The position numbers and the translations under genes were made by a program. A stretch of 11,079 nucleotides of DNA from Promethearchaeota archaeon (GTDB taxonomy: Archaea > Asgardarchaeota > Lokiarchaeia > Sigyniarchaeales > SOKP01), in NCBI GenBank assembly GCA_016840085.1, contig JAEOTA010000083.1, forward strand, positions 1 to 11,079, read 5' to 3'. Shown one piece after another: positions 957 through 10,417 of this stretch. The notes under the pieces are model-generated. The model saw only the letters and a list, made by a program, of their open reading frames with translations, made no database searches and was not told where the DNA came from. Positions within the stretch are counted from its first letter, which is position 1; each line of letters opens with the position of its first letter.

Positions 957-1919
957 CTATAAATTGAAATAAGGTTTAAATATCTTTCTCATCCAACTGA
1001 AATCAAATGTGAGAAGGGAATGAGTTACACATTGATTATTATCAAAATTTGTCTCAAATTTAAAACGGATTTCTATAATGCCAGTCTTTTCAACTCTATG
1101 ATACCCTTTCGGAATTTTGGGTAAAACAAATCCCTTTAAATTTGTGATTTTTATTATATCATTATAGTTAAATTGGATGTAAGTTAATATACCTTCTAAA
1201 ACTTTCTGAATTCTTTGATTAAATTCTAGTGGTGTTATCCCAAATTTATTTTTGATCATCCCAAAATATTCACGTTTCTTTCTTAAAGATCCTTTTTGAT
1301 AAGTTTCCAGTGTATACCATTTATTTGCTGCTAATAAAAACCGCTTTTGTATAAAATATTCTAAAAAATTATTTAATATTAAATTAAAACTAATTGGAAT
1401 ATTAAGACACTGAAAGCTATTTGGAAATTGATTATTTTTTAATATACTTACTAGCTCATATTGTATTTGATTATTATCCAGTAATTTCGGTTGTTTTGAA
1501 ATATATGAAGTAATTAGTGATTCTAGATCAATTTTAAAATTACTATCAATAATTATTGTGATATATTCTGAATCAATATTGAATAGATTAGATAAATGGA
1601 AAATAAAAAAATCATCAAGCCTTATAAAATATTTTTGATCTAAAGCTAAATTCTTTAGAGATTTTTGATCATTTATTTGAACAGAAAATAATTTACTAGG
1701 AATTTGTATAGGATTTTTCAAATATTGATGTAAAAGATTATTTAGAAAATCTTCTTCATCCATAAAACTACTTAAAGTTCTCAATCTATATTGTAAAGTT
1801 ATAATTTCAGTTTTTCCATTATATTGAAGAAAAACAGGTGTAAAGATTTTTTCATATTCACTAAATTGTTGGATTAATTGAGAAACCTTTTCCAACGACT
1901 GTTCTTTTATAATACTTAT
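957..1919 (-). CDS. Hypothetical protein (312 aa from TTG 1895; 320 aa if started at ATA 1919)
   Basis: Long ORF directly downstream of and co-oriented with the tandem-wHTH gene. SD GGTGA at 1930-1926 lies 6 nt before an in-frame ATA at 1919. No recognisable family motif. Confidence 0.75.
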   Translation of the reverse strand: MSIIKEQSLEKVSQLIQQFSEYEKIFTPVFLQYNGKTEIITLQYRLRTLSSFMDEEDFLNNLLHQYLKNPIQIPSKLFSVQINDQKSLKNLALDQKYFIRLDDFFIFHLSNLFNIDSEYITIIIDSNFKIDLESLITSYISKQPKLLDNNQIQYELVSILKNNQFPNSFQCLNIPISFNLILNNFLEYFIQKRFLLAANKWYTLETYQKGSLRKKREYFGMIKNKFGITPLEFNQRIQKVLEGILTYIQFNYNDIIKITNLKGFVLPKIPKGYHRVEKTGIIEIRFKFETNFDNNQCVTHSLLTFDFSWMRKIFKPYFNL

Positions 1920-1925
1920 TAAAAA

Positions 1926-1931
1926 TCACCT
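1926..1931 (-). promoter_or_regulatory. Shine-Dalgarno (AGGTGA) for the 312/320-aa gene
   Basis: The minus strand reads TGA-aaat-AGGTGA-ttttta-ATA-agt-att right after the upstream stop codon. Confidence 0.6.
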
Positions 1932-1935
1932 ATTT

Positions 1936-3393
1936 TCATGTTTGCGCAATCATGAGCGATTGATCATATAAATAATTTAGATTTCCTTCGTAATTTTCAC
2001 TAATCTCGATTCTTGTACTTACTTCATTTGAATAGTACTCATTTTTAATTGCATCAAAATATGGAATCCTAAACTGAAAGTAAAAAGTTCCTTTAGCATC
2101 TAATCTAAATTCTCCAATGAAATTATCTTGTTTTATCCCTGGTGGAATTTCTTGTTTTAAATCAATTGGATCTCTTTTTTTAGTTACAATTTCTACTTTT
2201 TGGTTATTTTCATCTAAAACCTTAAATTCTATTCCAGGAATTTCTATTTGAAATCCTTTTAATACTGAAATTTTGATTTCAAAATATCCACTACTCGAAG
2301 TTAATTGTTTGTTTTTAACATCTAATTTTACAATAGGCTTTATTATTTCAACTTTTAACTGTTTTCGATGTATCTCTTTAAAATTATTATTATATGCAAT
2401 GATTTCAATTCTTTCAATTTTAATTGGTTTGTTCCCTTCCGGAATTATTGAATAAAACTCAAATGGAATATAATTGATGTTTTTTTCTAAGATGTCAAGA
2501 GAATAGATATCTTGAGTCTCCTTAATATCATATTGAATATTCAAAAAGTTTCTAATTTTTAAATTGTTAGATACTTTTAATTCAATTTTAACAATTTCTT
2601 TTGAAAAAATTTTAATCCATCCCAAAATATTTTCATTTGGAAGTGCCCATGTTCCACAACCAGCTTCGAATATAGATTCGGAAATTTCAGTAATTTTCTC
2701 TGGCTTAATTTCCTTGAATTCAATAATATTTCTATAATAATTATTATAACTTTGAGTTAATTTAGTAATAATTTTCTTACCATAATTGGTCATTTCATAG
2801 AAAGAATACTCATTAGTAGTCTCATTCTTTCTTAAAAAGTTTTGAATTAAACCGCAAAATTCTAGCTTTTTTAAATGATTAGTAATTAAACTTTTCTCCT
2901 TATTTGTAACCCTTACAATATCAGAAAAGGATAATGATCCTTTATCCATTAATAATAGAACTAATGCATATCTAAATTTATTGGATATACCTTTTAATAG
3001 AGCTTCAAAATCTTTTGGAATTTTCTCCTTATAATCAAATTGGATGATGTTCAGATTATTGGCAGTTTTTTCATAGTAATTGTTATAACTTTTTATTAAA
3101 TCAGAAATTATAGCTTTTCCATAACTAGTTATTTCATAAAATGAAAATTCTTTAGATTCTTTAACTTTTTTTAAATAGTGTTGTACAATTCCAGCTAATT
3201 CTAATTTTCTTATATGATTAAGAACTGTACTGTTTGACTTATTTACATATTTGACTATTTTTGAGAGAGATAAACTTCCTTTTTCCATTAATAACAAAGA
3301 TAATTTAAATCTGAATTTATTACCCAAGCTTTTAATTAAAAATTTAAAATCTTTCGGAATTTTATCGTAATACTTATCTTTAAATTCAGTCAT
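1936..3393 (-). CDS. Tandem ArsR-like winged-helix protein with a beta-rich (Ig-like?) C-terminal region
   Basis: Two gapless 97-aa repeats (aa 11-107 and 124-220) show ArsR/wHTH patterning: LGNKFRFKLSLLLMEKGSLSLSKIV...STVLNHIRKLELAGIV...FYEITSYGK. The C-terminal ~245 aa have alternating hydrophobic, strand-like patterns. Confidence 0.85.
   Translation of the reverse strand: MTEFKDKYYDKIPKDFKFLIKSLGNKFRFKLSLLLMEKGSLSLSKIVKYVNKSNSTVLNHIRKLELAGIVQHYLKKVKESKEFSFYEITSYGKAIISDLIKSYNNYYEKTANNLNIIQFDYKEKIPKDFEALLKGISNKFRYALVLLLMDKGSLSFSDIVRVTNKEKSLITNHLKKLEFCGLIQNFLRKNETTNEYSFYEMTNYGKKIITKLTQSYNNYYRNIIEFKEIKPEKITEISESIFEAGCGTWALPNENILGWIKIFSKEIVKIELKVSNNLKIRNFLNIQYDIKETQDIYSLDILEKNINYIPFEFYSIIPEGNKPIKIERIEIIAYNNNFKEIHRKQLKVEIIKPIVKLDVKNKQLTSSSGYFEIKISVLKGFQIEIPGIEFKVLDENNQKVEIVTKKRDPIDLKQEIPPGIKQDNFIGEFRLDAKGTFYFQFRIPYFDAIKNEYYSNEVSTRIEISENYEGNLNYLYDQSLMIAQT
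2734..3363 (-). repeat. Intragenic duplication of the wHTH domain (3363-3073 and 3024-2734)
   Basis: Manual gapless alignment gives 55/97 identical residues; both copies run KIPKDF...SYNNYY. Confidence 0.95.
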
Positions 3394-3410
3394 TTTTAAT
3401 CATTTTTTAG

Positions 3411-3455
3411 ATACTAGTATAAAAAAATTTATCTAGATATATAAAAATTTACCTT
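3411..3455 (-). promoter_or_regulatory. Putative archaeal promoter (TATA box TTTATATA at ~3445-3438) followed by two CTAG-cored palindromes
   Basis: The minus strand reads aaggtaaattTTTATATAtctagata, about 45 nt before ATG 3393. The palindromes are TATCTAGATA (3430-3439) and ATACTAGTAT (3411-3420). The AT-rich background lowers significance. Confidence 0.45.
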
Positions 3456-3464
3456 AATTAATAT

Positions 3465-3962
3465 TTAACTTTTTCGTAAAATGTTGATTAAATTTTGTTT
3501 TATGAAAATAATGATTTTTTGATAAATTTCTATGTAATAATGAAAATAAAACACCTTTAATTCGTGTTTTTTTAATAGAGCTTTTAACATAAATGCATCA
3601 ACATTTCTGGATAATAAAACTAATGATGTTGCTTTTTTTTCTAAGAAGTAATTTGAATGTATTAAGTTTGACAATTCTATTGAGGCAGAAACATCATTAT
3701 TAGAAAAAAATATAAAAATATTGAAATCCGCTTTTTGCATTTCTTTATTAATTTCATTAAGAACATAAATCTCTCTTTCTTCAATTGGAGTATCCTCAGG
3801 TATTTTAATAATTTCATTTGCTAAAAAAGTATGAATAAATCCCTCGTTTCTTAATTTCTCAATTAAATTTTCCAAATAGGGTTTATTTTTTGGATGATAA
3901 GAACCAAATACAAGAACGTAAATTTTGTCATAAAAAGTGCTAATATCAATGAATTTTGTCAT
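3465..3962 (-). CDS. Nucleoside 2-deoxyribosyltransferase-like / TIR-like (flavodoxin-type alpha/beta fold) protein
   Basis: The pattern is strand 1 IYVLVFGSY, helix LENLIEKLRNEGF, strand TFLA, helix ...EMQKADFNIFIF, then DVSASIELS. This matches the 'AD-hhhh...G/S-x-x-x-E-L' layout of NDT/TIR-like enzymes, with a candidate catalytic Glu. Confidence 0.6.
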   Translation of the reverse strand: MTKFIDISTFYDKIYVLVFGSYHPKNKPYLENLIEKLRNEGFIHTFLANEIIKIPEDTPIEEREIYVLNEINKEMQKADFNIFIFFSNNDVSASIELSNLIHSNYFLEKKATSLVLLSRNVDAFMLKALLKKHELKVFYFHYYIEIYQKIIIFIKQNLINILRKS

Positions 3963-4115
3963 TTGGCAATTTTTGCATTAAATTTCTTACCTACTTATAT
4001 TAAATTATTTCTAATTAATTTAACTAAAAAAGAGTTAATAGTGTTCTAATTTATTAATTATTTTAAGTAATTTTTTTTAAATTGCTATTTGAAAGAAATC
4101 CAAATTATTTGTTGT

Positions 4116-6362
4116 TTATTGAAAATATATTGTCTTTGTAGTTTTTTTTACTGAATAATCATTTCCTATATCTAAAGCGATAGTCCAAATATCATCATCA
4201 AGTTCTTTACTTTTTTCTAAATTTAATTCTTCTCTTATTGCTTTGGTTGTATAATGATAAGTGATTTGTTTATTAGTTTTACTTTTATCAATGATATAAT
4301 TTTTAACTGCTAGCTTTATTTTTTCAACACCTACTTCTAATAGCACTTTTTTCTTAGTAATGAGTTCTTCAGTATCATCAGATACTTGACTTTTTGTAGA
4401 GATAGGTTCTTTTTGAGAAATCATAAAATCCGTAATTTCTTTTTCCTCTTTTGGAATTTTAATTTCTTTTGTTAATTTAGAGAGAACTGATAATCGTGTT
4501 TTGAATGTCAGCGGGGATAAGTTGATTTTATTTAAAAGACCCTCCGCTTCTTCAATTGAGGGATTATTTTCAAATATCTCTTTAAAATAGGTTATAAAAG
4601 ATAGGTAACCTACCTCTGTATCATCTAATGGACTAACCCGTCCAATATATTCTTTCAAACCTTCGGATATAGCATATCTATATTTTAAATCCAATTCAAC
4701 GTTAGTTATCCACGTAACATAATCTAATGCATTTTCTTCCAGTAATTTATAAGTTTTTTCTATGTCCATTTTTGTAACTTTGTTAGATTTCCTATAAACT
4801 TTAACTTCAATACCAAGATTTTTCACAAATTCAGCCCCTAAATTCCCAAAAAATTCTAGAAATACATCAGGTTTCTTTCCCGATTTACCCAACGGGGGCT
4901 CATGTTTAACATCAGTTAGATAATCATAATCTGAGTGATTTTTGAGGACCTCAAAAAAATCACATAGTGCTAATTCTACTTTGGTAGATCTTACCTTGTC
5001 CTGAATACTAGGATCTAATAATTTTTTTGTAAATTCTTTTTGTTCGGTGATTGTTAGTAGAATATCTTCTCTTTGTCTGAAAGCTTTAAATGCTTTAAAA
5101 AAAGTATTAACATGTTCTAACTTTTTATTCTTCTTGTAGTGTTCAATAAGCTCATAAAGATTTTTCAAGGTCTTTCGAAGATCTAATCCGCTATCCTCAT
5201 ATAAATATTTAATACTATTCTTTCCAAAAGGAAAAAGGGAATTGTCTGGAGAAGGTTGATAATTAAACTTAGACCAAAAATTAAATAAATATTTATTGAT
5301 TATATCTATAATGTAATTGGGCTCTAAGTTTGTTAAAGCTATTATTTTGGACCAATTATTTAACTGTAATTCCTGATCTTCTTGAAGGATCTCATCAAAT
5401 GCACCGAATGCATCTAGGGTCCCAGATAATATAATCGTAAGATACTTTTTCTGTCGTAAATTTAATAACAATGAAAATAGATTCTTGTAAACATCTTCTT
5501 GGTGTTCAGAGATTCCAGCTTCTAAATGATCGAATATTAATATGATTGTAGTCTTCTCATCGAAACACCATCTAATTAATTCGATTAATTCATCTATATA
5601 TTTTGAAGCATCATTATTAGTCTCCACGTTATAACCAGAATAATCATAACTTCCTTGAAAAGCTCTCATTGCATCAAATGTATTGGGATTTTGAATATGA
5701 GATTTCCAGAAAATCATTAAAAAATTTAAATCAACAGGAATTAATTCTTTTAATATTATAATATTACTCGTTAAGAGATCGATAAGTTTGTTGTAAAAAC
5801 TAGGGTTATCAATTCTTTTCCTTATAAAACTTAGATTAACAGAAAGACTATTAATCTCTTCTCCAGCAAATTTTTTTGAAAGCTCGTTATAAAGATTTCC
5901 TCCTTTTTCAACTAGGATATTGATAAATTTTCTTATTGAGTTCAAGAGGATATCAACACAAATACCAGATCTTTCAAGATTGGATACGAATTGACGATAT
6001 AATGCACGCATCTCATAGTCTTCTGGTTGAGAACTAGTTTCAAGATATGTAATTGGTATTTGATATGCTTCCGAAATTTCATTTACTGTCCAACAAATTA
6101 ATGTTGATTTACCAATCCCTTGTTTACCTATTACCCGTATTAATTTAGGCTGTTTGTAATGAATACTATCTCTGATTTCATATTTTATTTCTTCAATATA
6201 CTTATCTCGTCCATAACAAAAAGAAGGAGGATTATTGTAGAAATTTGTCGCAATTGGGGGTTTAGGAAAAGGATTTTCATTTTCAGGATTTAATAAAATT
6301 TCACTACATTTTTTAAGCCAATCCCATTCATCTTTATTTGAGAAGAAATGCATATTATACAA
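4116..6362 (-). CDS. AAA+/P-loop ATPase fused to a PD-(D/E)xK nuclease-like domain and a probable C-terminal wHTH
   Basis: N-terminal NPF...YGRDKYIEEI; Walker A GKQGIGKST (6128-6102); Walker B IILIFDHLE (~5546-5520); lid segment LFPFGKNSIKYLYEDSGLDLRKTL. The nuclease-like core is VELALCDFF...KKPDVFLEF...LGIEVK (~4980-4800). Start is TTG 6362 or ATG 6353. Confidence 0.85.
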   Translation of the reverse strand: MYNMHFFSNKDEWDWLKKCSEILLNPENENPFPKPPIATNFYNNPPSFCYGRDKYIEEIKYEIRDSIHYKQPKLIRVIGKQGIGKSTLICWTVNEISEAYQIPITYLETSSQPEDYEMRALYRQFVSNLERSGICVDILLNSIRKFINILVEKGGNLYNELSKKFAGEEINSLSVNLSFIRKRIDNPSFYNKLIDLLTSNIIILKELIPVDLNFLMIFWKSHIQNPNTFDAMRAFQGSYDYSGYNVETNNDASKYIDELIELIRWCFDEKTTIILIFDHLEAGISEHQEDVYKNLFSLLLNLRQKKYLTIILSGTLDAFGAFDEILQEDQELQLNNWSKIIALTNLEPNYIIDIINKYLFNFWSKFNYQPSPDNSLFPFGKNSIKYLYEDSGLDLRKTLKNLYELIEHYKKNKKLEHVNTFFKAFKAFRQREDILLTITEQKEFTKKLLDPSIQDKVRSTKVELALCDFFEVLKNHSDYDYLTDVKHEPPLGKSGKKPDVFLEFFGNLGAEFVKNLGIEVKVYRKSNKVTKMDIEKTYKLLEENALDYVTWITNVELDLKYRYAISEGLKEYIGRVSPLDDTEVGYLSFITYFKEIFENNPSIEEAEGLLNKINLSPLTFKTRLSVLSKLTKEIKIPKEEKEITDFMISQKEPISTKSQVSDDTEELITKKKVLLEVGVEKIKLAVKNYIIDKSKTNKQITYHYTTKAIREELNLEKSKELDDDIWTIALDIGNDYSVKKTTKTIYFQ

Positions 6363-6382
6363 ATTTATAGTTAACCAAACAA

Positions 6383-6997
6383 TTATTTTAATTTAAACCA
6401 AACAAATTTTTTCCCATCTTGTACTAACGGGGCACCTCGGTCTCTTTTTCCAGGTTGTAATTCAACTTTATAATTTAAAAACAGTGAATATAAGTGTTTA
6501 TGAATTCTTTCGGTTGACCATGGAATAAAATTTTTGATTTTTTCAGTTAAATCAGAAATTAGAACAAATTCGCCAAATTTTTTATCTAATGAGTTATAAG
6601 ATAATTTCAATATTCGGAAAAAATGATCCTCCGAAATCTCTGATACCGATTCAGTATCAATGCCAATCTTATCTTCTAATTTCTTAAGTCTACGACTGAA
6701 ACCTTCTAATGTTCTATGAATATTTGTAATATCAGATTGAATTTCTCCGATAATACTATTATCAATCTTCAGTGATTCTGCTTTCTCAAAAATGATACCT
6801 CTTGAAGGCTTTTCTAATAAATTTTTTGCCCCCTTAATAAACTTTTCTGCTGTTTTTTCTCCAATACCCTTAATTCTTTTTAAATCACTAATAGTTGACT
6901 CAGCTAACTTCTGTACTGAATCAATATTAGCACTCCTTAGCAGTGATAGTTTCTTTTCACCAATACCATCAATATCTTCAAGAACTAAAGCTGGCAA
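6383..6997 (-). CDS. Helix-hairpin-helix / coiled-coil / winged-helix DNA-binding protein
   Basis: Two HhH motifs (LEDIDGIGEKK and LKRIKGIGEKTAEK), a heptad segment (IQSDITNIHRTLEGFSRRLKKLEDKI), and a C-terminal three-helix plus hairpin pattern (FFRILKLSY...VLISDLTEKI...VELQPG...KFVWFKL). TTG start with SD GAGGT 7 nt upstream. Confidence 0.85.
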   Translation of the reverse strand: MPALVLEDIDGIGEKKLSLLRSANIDSVQKLAESTISDLKRIKGIGEKTAEKFIKGAKNLLEKPSRGIIFEKAESLKIDNSIIGEIQSDITNIHRTLEGFSRRLKKLEDKIGIDTESVSEISEDHFFRILKLSYNSLDKKFGEFVLISDLTEKIKNFIPWSTERIHKHLYSLFLNYKVELQPGKRDRGAPLVQDGKKFVWFKLK

Positions 6998-7004
6998 AAA
7001 AAAT

Positions 7005-7009
7005 ACCTC
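7005..7009 (-). promoter_or_regulatory. Shine-Dalgarno (GAGGT) for the HhH gene
   Basis: The minus strand reads ttaGAGGTattttttTTGcca. Confidence 0.6.
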
Positions 7010-7221
7010 TAAATTTTTGTTTCTTAAATGGATATATTATCTTTACAAATTTAATTTTAATCACATTCCTTATTAGCTTTTTTATTTTAGAGAACTTTAT
7101 TATATCGTAAGAAATCTAAATCTAAAGTTAAAAATAGAAAAATTTAGACCCTTTTCTCAGATAATCTCAACAAGTCAATCTGAGATAACATTTTGGTATA
7201 ACTTTTTTATACTTATAAGGA

Positions 7222-7963: not shown

Positions 7964-7978
7964 ATGAAATTTATAATA
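7964..7978 (+). promoter_or_regulatory. Putative BRE/TATA box (gaaaTTTATAAT) for the PRTase-DprA pair
   Basis: TTTATAAT at 7970-7977, preceded by purines, ends 31 nt before ATG 8009. This favours 8009 over 7964 as the start. Confidence 0.4.
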
Positions 7979-8008
7979 TTTTTATCAAATAATAAGAATA
8001 GTTTAATT

Positions 8009-9376
8009 ATGGAAAAAGAGACTGATCAAAAATTTTATATTGAAATAAAACAATCAAGAAAGGGACATTACTTTCTTGGTTCCTTAAAAATTCATGCTAA
8101 CTCTATTGAAGAAATGGAGAATTTAATGGATTCCGCTTTATCCTCTGCATTGCATAAGATTAAGCTCTTGAATGAGAGTAGACGCAAAGAAAAAAAGGTA
8201 AAAAAATCTGTACAATTATCAGATCCAGACGATAAGCAACTATTTGAAAAGCTACGTCATTGGAGGCTTGAGCTTTCTCGAGCGCAGGGTGTGCGGCCAT
8301 TTATGATATTTCATGATTCTACATTAAAGGAAATTGCAATAAGGAGACCTGTTACAAGAGAAGAGTTGTTTCGAATATCTGGTATTGGTCCAAAGAAATA
8401 CGACAAATATGGAGATAAACTCTTAGAAATCGTACATACCTTTATCACTGATAATCAAGTAAAAGAGAGTGAAAATCAAAACGTTATAGAGAATTTAAAT
8501 AAAAATAAAACATTAAATATGGAAATAGAAAAACCTAAATCAAGAGTTTTTATACAGGGAGATAGAGTAATAATTCAAACCCAATCAAATTATGACGGAG
8601 AAATTGGAAAAATTGTAGGATATGATGGTTATAAATATTTTGAAATTGAACTATTGAGTATAAAAAAGACTATAAATTGTTTAGAAAAAGAGATAGAAAT
8701 AGCTCCTGCTGAATATATTAGAAAATATGAACTAGAAATCAATCTTGATAATAATAAAATTCTTAAATTAAAAGCTCAGAATTTGAAGCCATCTATTGAA
8801 GCGTTAAGAGATAATCAAGTTTTTAAAGGTTTATATGCGTTAGGGAAATATTATTCTTTACGAGATTATCCTGAGAAGCATAAAAATGATTTTCTTTCAC
8901 AAAAGATAATAGAACTTAAATCATTAAATAAAAAGGCTGGTCAAGAGATCGCAGAAATATATTTAAGTTTCATAGAGGATTTAGCAGAATTAAAAAGAAT
9001 TACTGATAAAATCGATTATATAGTAATGATGCCGACAACAAAAGAGACAAATCATGTTAGTCTATGGGGAGATAAAATCTGTGAAGCTTTAAATAAGGAA
9101 AATCTTACGAAATTTATCTATATTAACCCAGAAAAGGTAGGCTATTTGAAAGATTACGTTCATAAGGATCTCTGGGGGCGCAAGCTTACTGCCAAGGGAG
9201 CTTTTCGAATAGATAAGGATAAACCTAGTTTTCCTTTATTAACTAACAAAACCTGCTTAATTTTGGATGATGTTTGTACTACAGGAAATCAGATTAATGC
9301 ACTTACTAATTTATTAGCTGAAGAAGGAATAAGGGAAGTGTATGCTTTTGTAATAGGAAAAACAAAATTTAGTTGA
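8009..9376 (+). CDS. HRDC + SH3/KOW-like + ComF/ShosT-like type I phosphoribosyltransferase fusion protein
   Basis: HRDC domain LFEKLRHWRLELSRAQGVRPFMIFHDSTLKEIA...ISGIGPKKYDKYG (~8231-8434). KOW/SH3-like segment FIQGDRVII...GEIGKIVG (~8549-8700). PRPP-binding loop LILDDVCTTGNQ (~9257-9292). C-terminal VYAFVIGKT as in ComF-like PRTases. The ORF track extends the start to 7964. Confidence 0.9.
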   Translation: MEKETDQKFYIEIKQSRKGHYFLGSLKIHANSIEEMENLMDSALSSALHKIKLLNESRRKEKKVKKSVQLSDPDDKQLFEKLRHWRLELSRAQGVRPFMIFHDSTLKEIAIRRPVTREELFRISGIGPKKYDKYGDKLLEIVHTFITDNQVKESENQNVIENLNKNKTLNMEIEKPKSRVFIQGDRVIIQTQSNYDGEIGKIVGYDGYKYFEIELLSIKKTINCLEKEIEIAPAEYIRKYELEINLDNNKILKLKAQNLKPSIEALRDNQVFKGLYALGKYYSLRDYPEKHKNDFLSQKIIELKSLNKKAGQEIAEIYLSFIEDLAELKRITDKIDYIVMMPTTKETNHVSLWGDKICEALNKENLTKFIYINPEKVGYLKDYVHKDLWGRKLTAKGAFRIDKDKPSFPLLTNKTCLILDDVCTTGNQINALTNLLAEEGIREVYAFVIGKTKFS

Positions 9377-9415
9377 ATTTAATATTATAGAATAATAATT
9401 ATAGGTTGAAGTTTA

Positions 9416-10417
9416 ATGAATCTAAGCTTTTATTTACTATTAAGCAAATATATCCCATTACCCTTATCTGCTTTAAAAATTGTAGAAAAGGATAAAGATC
9501 ACCCCTTTAGAAGCCTAGCGATATTAACTCAAAAAGAAATTGAACAACAATTAATAATCTTTAATAAAACACCTGGTATTTCGATAAAAAACATTAAGGA
9601 AAAAGTATTGAAGATTCAAAATTTAATTCAAAATGATTTTATCGAAAAAATTGATGGAAATTTAAATAGATGGAATAAATCTGGAATAAAAATCATAAGG
9701 TATTTCGATAATTCCTATCCAAAAAACCTCAAGGGTATTAAAGATGCTCCAAAAATTATTACTTATCAAGGAGACTTTAACCTATATAGTGAAAGATCCA
9801 TATCGATAATTGGTACTCGGAATCCAACAGATTATGGAATAGGTATGGCTCGTAAAATAGGGAGTAGATTTGGCGAATTAGGTTTTTTAATTGTTAATGG
9901 ATTTGCTAAAGGAATTGATACACATGCAATTAAGGGGGCTTTAGCGGTAGGAGGAAAAATTATTGGTGTATTAGGGTCAGGTTTACTACATATATATCCA
10001 AAAGAAAATAAAGAATTATTCTTTAATATTGTACAAGAAGGTAAAGGAGTATTTATATCAGAGCACTTACCTGATGATACCATAAAAAAATCAACCTTAG
10101 CTGCTAGAAATCGAATCTCTAGTGCACTTAGTCTAGGGAATATAGTAATAGAAGCGGGAAAGGGATCAGGAACTAGATGGCAAGTAGAATATGGCAAAGA
10201 ACAGGGTAAACCTATAATAGTTTTAAAACCCAAGGGAAACTATGAACAAGCATACTTACCTAATTATATAATTGAGCACGAGAAAAATTGTTTCATCATT
10301 GAAAATATTGATGATGTTGATAATATCGCAAATTCAATCTTGGAACTTAATAAGGAGAAAAAAGAAAAACATAGAGAAATTAGTAATAAATACCAAAAAA
10401 CTCTCTCAGATTTTTAA
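9416..10417 (+). CDS. dprA: DprA/SMF-family (ShosA-like) DNA-binding protein with C-terminal PIP box
   Basis: YPKNLKGIKDAPKII, SIIGTRNPTDYG, IVNGFAKGIDTHA, VLGSGLLHIYPKEN, ISEH, ARNRISSALS and VIEAGKGSGT form the DprA Rossmann-fold motif series. It lies 39 nt after the PRTase gene and ends QKTLSDF*. Confidence 0.93.
   Translation: MNLSFYLLLSKYIPLPLSALKIVEKDKDHPFRSLAILTQKEIEQQLIIFNKTPGISIKNIKEKVLKIQNLIQNDFIEKIDGNLNRWNKSGIKIIRYFDNSYPKNLKGIKDAPKIITYQGDFNLYSERSISIIGTRNPTDYGIGMARKIGSRFGELGFLIVNGFAKGIDTHAIKGALAVGGKIIGVLGSGLLHIYPKENKELFFNIVQEGKGVFISEHLPDDTIKKSTLAARNRISSALSLGNIVIEAGKGSGTRWQVEYGKEQGKPIIVLKPKGNYEQAYLPNYIIEHEKNCFIIENIDDVDNIANSILELNKEKKEKHREISNKYQKTLSDF

Follow-up and report, generated by a model that had tools for sequence, protein, structure and literature searches.

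The stretch analysed here, which we call the window, is one whole 11-kb contig (JAEOTA010000083.1, 11,079 nt) from the genome of a Promethearchaeota archaeon (assembly GCA_016840085.1; 4.7 Mb, 27% GC). On its reverse strand lie two adjacent genes, a small one (A) directly upstream of a large one (B), which form a compact cassette predicted to encode a DNA-binding partner protein and an AAA+ ATPase with a built-in restriction-type nuclease. The features of the cassette are listed below (aa, amino acids; ORF, open reading frame; pLDDT, predicted local distance difference test).

4093..7139, reverse strand: two-gene cassette (promoter region, A, B, short 3' tail), from blastn against the metagenomic locus L001
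6383..6997, reverse strand: gene A, 204 aa, with HhH2 head, coiled coil and conserved winged-helix-like tail, from the ORF
6824..6985, reverse strand: A residues 5-58, (HhH)2 DNA-binding head, from Pfam HHH_5
6659..6760, reverse strand: A residues 80-113, short coiled coil of four heptads, from a heptad scan
6386..6640, reverse strand: A residues 120-204, probable C-terminal winged-helix-like domain, from conservation and profile matches
4116..6362, reverse strand: gene B, 748 aa (probably 745 aa, from ATG 6353), with AAA+ ATPase, PD-(D/E)xK nuclease and winged helix, from the ORF and an AlphaFold2 model
5067..6314, reverse strand: B residues 17-432, AAA+ module of the ORC/Cdc6/TnsC clade with its lid, from VIA-align and Foldseek
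6105..6128, reverse strand: B Walker A, G79-K-Q-G-I-G-K85-S86, from the family alignment
5520..5546, reverse strand: B Walker B strand, I-I-L-I-F-D278-H-L-E281, from the family alignment
4485..5045, reverse strand: B residues 440-626, PD-(D/E)xK (Mrr-like) nuclease domain, from Foldseek, VIA, ESM Atlas and motifs
4338..4466, reverse strand: B residues 633-675, disordered linker, from low pLDDT
4119..4337, reverse strand: B residues 676-748, C-terminal winged helix, from VIA

An earlier sequence-only reading of this DNA described two genes 20 nt apart, and their adjacency, shared orientation and coordinates hold. The spacer measures 20 nt if B starts at the TTG at 6362 and 29 nt if it starts at the ATG at 6353. 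The ATG, and with it the longer gap, is the likelier start because homologues align from residue 4-5 of B and the 92%-identical protein P0099 is 745 aa long.

Gene A starts with TTG, giving MPALV..., which matches the start of its homologues. Nineteen proteins match A at E<=0.001; 16 are full-length or tail relatives, and those with a name come from Promethearchaeota. The head (residues 5-58) matches Pfam HHH_5 at 46.7 bits against a cut-off of 27 (E 4.5e-12), and its profile matches include the N-terminal domains of RadA/Rad51 and the HhH repeats of Topo V. Residues ~80-113 form four heptads, with L/I/V/M/F at 8 of 8 a/d positions and polar residues at 85% of the rest; coiled-coil families in Pfam and the PDB match A weakly. 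Most of the invariant columns among close orthologues fall in the last 85 residues. This tail can be aligned in all 22 of the diverse partner proteins compared, with the pattern H-S-H-H-S-wing-S and a closing signature ..ELQPG..G..F.WFK. The pattern suggests a winged-helix-like fold, as do the best PDB profile matches, which are winged helices but weak and not significant (MCM winged helix 2ma3, E 0.035; BlaI, 0.45; GntR, 0.52). A profile of the tail, A7, picks up partners in Caldisericum exile (6e-14) and in locus L061 (1.6e-8), and a language-model look-up of the tail returns unnamed clusters only, with scores <0.9.

The head of A differs between loci and the tail is constant. Here the head is HhH2; elsewhere it is SAP/Rho_N/HeH-like (Rho_N match 2.5e-5, slightly under the Pfam cut-off), by eye C2H2/zinc-ribbon-like or wHTH-like, or short, and only the HhH2 assignment passes Pfam thresholds, the other head types falling below them. 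The sequence-only reading had placed DNA-binding domains on both sides of a coiled coil in A. Its head and heptads stand, the fold of the tail is indicated by weak matches, and the HhH turns out not to be a constant feature of the family.

For gene B, sequence searches of the whole protein and of its C-terminal half against the PDB gave nothing useful, and only fold searches were informative. Our AlphaFold2 model, built like the motif counts below on an alignment of 34 diverse family members (orthologue counts use n=33), has a pLDDT of 88.7 and a predicted TM-score (pTM) of 0.82. By VIA-align, residues 17-432 resemble yeast Orc1 (5zr1_A, Z 16.0 over 260 aa, root-mean-square deviation 3.7), Pyrobaculum Cdc6 (1fnn, Z 15.6), TnsC (9g0f, Z 15.3) and the RADAR ATPase RdrA (8hr8, Z 13.5). 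The top Foldseek matches are the same Orc1/Cdc6/TnsC/RdrA set (E 9e-6 to 1e-4), and Pfam AAA_16 matches at 7e-7, under its cut-off. In the model, a helical insert of ~120 aa (about 113-235) separates Walker A from Walker B. G82, G84 and K85 of Walker A are invariant, as is D278 of Walker B; E281 is invariant among orthologues; and R52 of the GR motif, R303, T315 and the lid arginine R396 are invariant or near-invariant.

The C-terminal part of B, modelled separately as residues 425-748, has a pLDDT of 89.8. All top Foldseek matches of residues ~440-626 are restriction-type nucleases (N.BspD6I, MspJI, AspBHI, EcoT38I, FokI and Cap4; E 1.5e-3 to 2e-2). VIA returns VC1899 (Z 8.4), McrC (7.5), AF1548 (7.4) and the Avs3 nuclease (7.0), with 113-130 residues aligned for the top three, and the neighbours in the ESM Atlas are Mrr_cat clusters, with TM up to 0.64 by target. 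These fold scores are middling; the hit list is nonetheless uniform. No Pfam nuclease family was reported against B at E<=0.1, and for that reason the assignment is drawn from fold and motifs. The motif is well kept: E463 is found in 31 of the 34 diverse members, D499 in 32 and K521 in 32, and E463, P498-D499, K521 and D547 are each conserved at a level of at least 90%, across about 17-90% B identity. At position 519, 13 of the 34 have E and 20 have Q, and E517 is the commonest residue at 517 (20/34). In a paralogous subfamily the acid is shifted by two residues on one strand, giving E517-x-Q519-x-K521, and the listed Q519 rows mostly carry E517. Some copies of B show signs of decay; in one assembly it is split into ORFs of 326 and 421 aa, and a sister assembly has it intact (L006/L046, 2100-4266).

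Between nuclease and C-terminus, residues 633-675 form a linker of low confidence (pLDDT 35-47 in the full model, 47-61 in the C-terminal model). The last 73 residues, 676-748, fold as a winged helix in the model and match by VIA the winged helix of the JetA kleisin (Z 7.2), the C-terminal winged-helix domain of Scc1 (6.7), Stn1 (6.4), Z-alpha (6.3), the DpnI winged helix (6.1) and the C-terminal domain of Cdt1 (5.8). The same winged helix also ends otherwise different proteins (P0086, P0090, P0093, P0094 and P0096). As modelled, B follows the Orc1/Cdc6 layout, with an Mrr-type nuclease inserted after the lid and ahead of the winged helix. Its alignments to Aeropyrum ORC2 (1w5s/1w5t) cover residues 22-721 of the model.

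Most of what the sequence-only reading said of B is borne out by this model and its alignment. The Walker motifs and the AAA+ lid are intact, with K85 and D278 invariant and R396 near-invariant; the PD...EVK region does fold as a restriction-endonuclease-like domain, with the alpha-beta-beta-beta-alpha-beta core, by Foldseek, VIA and ESM Atlas; and the terminal winged helix-turn-helix (wHTH)-like domain is there. It had likened the ATPase to Orc1/Cdc6-, STAND- and BrxD-like proteins. The likeness to Orc1/Cdc6 holds, and the nearest solved relatives are Orc1/Cdc6, TnsC and RdrA, not BrxD.

The two genes travel together. Wherever a locus extends upstream of B, the ORF directly preceding B on the same strand belongs to the A family and is 160-235 aa long; L022 is the one exception. 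This co-conservation, which the sequence-only reading had named as a point to check, persists down to about 17-20% B identity. The pairing also occurs at a Heimdallarchaeal locus and in a paralogous subfamily of ~830 aa, including a second pair on another contig (C26) of the same genome. In the bacterial genome of C. exile (AP012051.1, L060 7405-9965), an A homologue of 199 aa, whose head is wHTH-like, overlaps by 4 nt a 654-aa B homologue that keeps the ADV...FEVK motif, and this pair suggests inter-domain transfer of A-B. The identity matrices of the A tail and of B are correlated with a Mantel r of 0.945, which none of 5000 permutations reached, although the figure partly reflects shared ancestry and includes within-genome paralogues. 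Runs of A+B complex prediction scored 0.00, 0.53 and 0.00, and speak neither for nor against binding.

The family is small, with only 79 clusters (50% identity) in a set of 1.84 billion proteins, and is almost entirely Asgard; the named relatives of A and B come from Promethearchaeota/Lokiarchaeota, Helarchaeota and Heimdallarchaeota. Matches occur in 13 of the 201 genomes searched from the phylum (9 of the 85 that are high-quality) and in 1 of 10 congeners, and a single genome may hold several paralogous A-B pairs. When the window is compared by blastn with the metagenomic locus L001, only 4093-7139 aligns (91% nucleotide identity over 3049 nt), and the flanks share nothing. These limits define a 3.05-kb cassette that takes in A and B, about 140 nt upstream of A and a 23-nt tail, and the cassette moves as a unit. 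The region around it is strain-specific: in a search of 16 same-genus genomes (G000 included), the 15 congeners had nothing in common with the window, in DNA or in protein, beyond the DUF72 and flavodoxin genes. In one of the genomes, G202, these two genes have another arrangement and are split by unrelated metabolic genes, and the comparison with congeners did not yield an empty site. Searches of plasmid, phage and IMG/VR collections gave no match to B, and in the loci examined the pair has no integrase or transposase beside it. A 13-nt direct repeat stands at both cassette edges (AAGAAATCCAAAT at 4093-4105 and AAGAAATCTAAAT at 7109-7121); it was found post hoc, and ~0.2 such matches per window are expected by chance.

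Many of the loci lie near known or candidate defence genes. Within 7964-10417 of the window, on the forward strand, a 470-aa HRDC-PRTase protein (PADLOC ShosT 6.6e-9, PsyrT 5e-8; Pfam HRDC 4.8e-24) is followed after 39 nt by a DprA-family gene (Pfam 7.9e-55). By their sequence matches the two look like a ShosTA-like defence pair, and the flavodoxin gene and the A-B cassette stand in divergent orientation to it. Elsewhere the neighbours include GmrSD and NurA/HerA-like genes (L001), a BrxL-like gene, as a neighbour only (L002), type I CRISPR-Cas and an MmeI-type restriction-modification (RM) enzyme beside the pair (L028/L044), a HEPN-NTase (L026) and NERD-UvrD (L040 and C26). The C. exile pair sits inside a CRISPR-Cas locus, between Cas6 genes and the type I cas operon. 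In a rough comparison, 150 neighbour ORFs from 13 loci matched 138 PADLOC families at E<=1e-8, including Cas3b (3.5e-174) and BrxL (3e-99), versus 21 families, nearly all generic ATPase or radical-SAM, for 150 ORFs from 11 random regions of this genome.

Several neighbouring genes can be described in their own right. The divergent pair on C26 (L059, 9051-14025; about 20% B identity) is flanked divergently by a NERD+UvrD helicase gene, whose product is 78% identical in aa (79.5% in nt) to its counterpart beside an orthologue-type pair in L040 (669-5594), with the similarity ending at the helicase start codon. The presence of NERD-UvrD beside two such different pairs may reflect either a functional link or a common hotspot in which the pairs were swapped. 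C26 also encodes an 824-aa SIR2_2-TPR protein at 2501-4975. Orthologous NurA-like (Pfam NurA 21.5 bits, barely over the cut-off) and HerA-like (DUF87) genes adjoin A-B in L001 (12921-15788) and L038 (6129-8998), in differing orientations, and in this genome lie on another contig (C57, 16191-19036).

Within the window itself, a 485-aa protein at 1936-3393 (reverse strand) carries two tandem ArsR-type wHTH domains (Pfam HTH_5 6.7e-15), which match by PADLOC the wHTH parts of Csa3/CasR/CARF-associated regulators (1.2e-13). After these come about 245 residues that match no family, and the protein is not conserved beside the cassette elsewhere. A conserved operon of the cassette with the three genes downstream of it (957-3962) was considered and ruled out, as these are absent beside the 91%-identical cassette of L001. 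No methyltransferase-family match was found among window ORFs of at least 90 aa, in agreement with the sequence-only reading, and the window holds no tRNA gene or Rfam match. The sequence at each contig end (1-112 and 10953-11079) recurs with 100% identity at the ends of several further contigs in the assembly (C56, C58; C33, C77, C79, C41 and others), which indicates that the contig is bounded by repeats or assembly-graph junctions.

Taken together, these observations lead us to propose that A-B is an ATP-gated, methylase-independent DNA-cleaving immune module, a reading of its folds, motifs, pairing, mobility and context to which we give a probability of roughly 0.55. The defence role itself we infer from genomic context and patchy distribution. 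In our model, A would be a small, probably dimeric adaptor, whose coiled coil joins a swappable, sequence-independent DNA-binding head to a constant tail that presumably docks on B, and A would tether or present DNA. On binding ATP, B would assemble on DNA in the manner of initiator-clade AAA+ proteins (ORC, DnaA, TnsC), and this assembly would license the nuclease, so that foreign DNA could be cut with no need of a cognate methyltransferase, either as in type IV systems or in a self-limited way. A more far-reaching version remains tentative, and we would rate it at somewhat short of even odds: that A-B is an undescribed, mainly Asgard immune system in which an Orc1/Cdc6-type ATPase has been turned into an ATP-gated restriction nuclease, with targeting diversified by swapping A heads (HhH2, SAP/HeH-like, zinc-finger-like or wHTH-like), maybe cooperating with NERD-UvrD or NurA/HerA-like modules in some genomes.

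Several observations count against this proposal. D499 is missing in 4 of 33 orthologues and K521 in 4 of 33, which implies that the nuclease is not always under selection. About half of the examined loci have no recognisable defence neighbour (L005, L027, L047, L036, L042 and L043), and the PADLOC comparison draws on one control genome and redundant models, with no per-locus statistics. No A-B fusion was found among longer proteins in what was a weak search, and the winged-helix fold of the A tail is read from a sequence pattern and weak matches. The ATPase also departs from the usual pattern. In place of the usual catalytic Glu, D278 is followed by His in this subfamily (H/E/D/N family-wide), and a conserved arginine at the canonical box VII position was not seen in the B alignment. 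These two features suggest that B perhaps binds ATP as a slow switch and does not turn it over; we infer that the ATPase is a switch rather than a fast motor.

Much of the same evidence could be read as abortive infection or a toxin-antitoxin-like arrangement, in which B is a STAND/ORC-type sensor-effector that degrades host DNA, A is its antitoxin-like restraint or trigger sensor, and infection frees or activates B, so that the cell dies or arrests. The architecture and the context fit this equally, the nuclease resembles abortive effectors (Cap4, NucC, the Can2/Card1-like VC1899 and the Avs3 nuclease), and the small upstream gene abuts or overlaps the large one, by 4 nt in C. exile. A non-canonical Walker B (D-H) suits a switch over a motor, and STAND NTPases derive from the Cdc6/ORC clade and serve as switches or nucleic-acid sensors (PMC8195603). 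However, B has no repeat-type sensor array (TPR, WD40, LRR) like those of Avs and other STAND sensors, and the generic DNA-binding heads of A fit DNA tethering better than sensing of viral proteins, so we consider this explanation improbable, if the strongest of the alternatives. We think it somewhat less probable again that the pair has nothing to do with immunity, and that B, as an initiator or loader of the Orc1/Cdc6 kind, combines a built-in nuclease with a DNA-binding co-factor and serves a mobile element or the host in replication initiation, integration/excision, partition or repair. Its closest solved folds are indeed replication initiators and the transposition regulator TnsC, and the order of AAA+ module, lid and winged helix is that of Orc1/Cdc6; the ORC2 alignments span nearly the whole model. 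NurA/HerA-like repair-type genes adjoin the pair in two loci, and the cassette changes contexts and has the direct repeat at both edges. On the other hand, the loci seen have neither an integrase or transposase nor MCM or any further replication gene alongside the pair, the plasmid, phage and IMG/VR collections gave no match, and the distribution is too patchy for a housekeeping role. The Orc1/Cdc6 model also scores only 24.7 bits against 181, and several paralogous pairs may occur in one genome.

A further possibility is that the restriction-like domain binds or senses nucleotides or DNA ends and is not a DNase, which would make B an ATP-dependent DNA-binding regulator or scaffold that recruits NERD-UvrD or NurA/HerA-like effectors. 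The orthologues lacking D499 or K521 would fit, as would the 78%-identical NERD-UvrD divergently beside two pairs of very different subfamilies, and inactive restriction-endonuclease domains paired with NTPases have been proposed as sensors in conflict systems (PMC12839542). Yet the full set of E...PD...(E/Q)xK plus D547 is kept here and in about 90% of the 34 diverse members, which is hard to explain without catalysis, and most loci have no helicase or HerA neighbour. We regard this as the most doubtful of the explanations.

According to recent surveys, many archaeal genomes have no known defence system beyond CRISPR-Cas and RM (PMC12988326). Archaeal immunity, notably that of Asgard archaea, is poorly charted, and A-B is a compact candidate: two genes in 3 kb, a confident model of B and obvious sites for point mutants (K85, D499 and K521), with the swappable A heads as a natural experiment. 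Should the pair prove to defend its host, a nuclease would be coupled to an ORC-like switch in a new way, and within the lineage nearest to eukaryotes. Otherwise we would still be dealing with an unusual Orc1/Cdc6 derivative that carries its own nuclease, and what it does in DNA transactions would have to be explained.

Pairs of a nucleoside triphosphatase (NTPase) and a nuclease are a familiar kind of defence system, and it is against such systems, and against the relatives of the ATPase, that the cassette has to be compared. For A and B PADLOC returns weak matches only (mad8 0.005 and DpdH 0.034, the sole ones for B, and DrmD 0.005 and PglW 0.02), and we rejected them as generic P-loop or HhH similarity. 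The sequence-only reading could assign the pair to no named system, and we agree: neither gene matches BREX or another PADLOC model convincingly, and the pair is not described in the literature searched.

The closest likeness is to Orc1/Cdc6 (1fnn, 2qby, 1w5s), with which B shares the initiator-clade AAA+ module, the N-terminal ..GR.. motif, the lid arginine R396 and the C-terminal winged helix (VIA Z 15-16 over about 255-264 residues). B departs from Orc1/Cdc6 in that a 190-residue PD-(D/E)xK nuclease and a disordered linker separate its lid from its winged helix, a helical insert of ~120 residues separates its two Walker motifs, and it has an obligate small partner. Moreover, Orc1/Cdc6 is a near-universal archaeal core gene, whereas the A-B family is accessory and patchy. 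This patchiness, together with a TIGR02928 score of 24.7 bits against a cut-off of 181.3 (over residues 50-125 only), rules out B as a bona fide Orc1/Cdc6.

The ATPase fold of B is also like that of TnsC of Tn7 and CRISPR-associated transposons (CAST; Z 15.3, 293 residues aligned), and common to both is the idea that an AAA+ assembly on DNA gives a restriction-type nuclease its licence. However, the Tn7/CAST nuclease TnsA (PD-(D/E)xK plus winged helix) is a separate protein, whereas the nuclease of B is fused to the ATPase, and TnsA is absent among the nuclease-domain matches listed. A TnsC/TnsA-like transposition module was rejected, as the called genes and Pfam families beside the pair in the examined loci include no transposase, TnsB or TniQ.

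Among anti-phage systems, B resembles in structure the large ORC/STAND-like AAA+ proteins RdrA (Foldseek 3e-5) and BrxC (9zdx, 5.9e-4), although these do not have the Mrr-like nuclease and winged-helix tail of B. RADAR consists of an ORC-like ATPase paired with a deaminase. B has no PADLOC match to RdrA, and its partner is a 204-aa DNA-binding protein and not an RdrB deaminase. An ordinary-sized adenosine deaminase gene (341 aa, A_deaminase) does lie 1.4 kb downstream of a distant A-B pair, in one locus only (L047, 13644-14669). The pair differs from BREX in that B has no PADLOC match to a BREX ATPase (BrxC/BrxD/PglY) and the window has no PglX or PglZ.

The nuclease connects B to type IV restriction. 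Its fold is nearest Mrr_cat, MspJI, AspBHI and McrC, type IV enzymes are NTPase-coupled and need no methyltransferase, and the succession of a PD-(D/E)xK domain and a winged helix is that of DpnI. In contrast to the McrB GTPase family of McrBC, the ATPase of B has its best matches in ORC/Cdc6/TnsC, and McrB is absent among the matches listed. No known modification-reader domain was identified, and B has no Pfam sequence match to Mrr_cat. With Avs3 and nSTAND3-Mrr_cat proteins B has in common an Mrr/Cap4-type nuclease fused to a Cdc6/STAND-clade NTPase, and one nSTAND3+Mrr_cat cluster appears in the Atlas. Here the order is reversed, with the nuclease C-terminal to the NTPase in B; no TPR-like repeat sensor array follows the lid of B in our model; and there is a dedicated partner gene. 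Pfam nSTAND and NACHT match B at E 0.01-0.07, far below cut-off. As far as we have checked, three things are undescribed: the A-B family itself, an ORC architecture with an inserted nuclease, and an adaptor with a swappable head.

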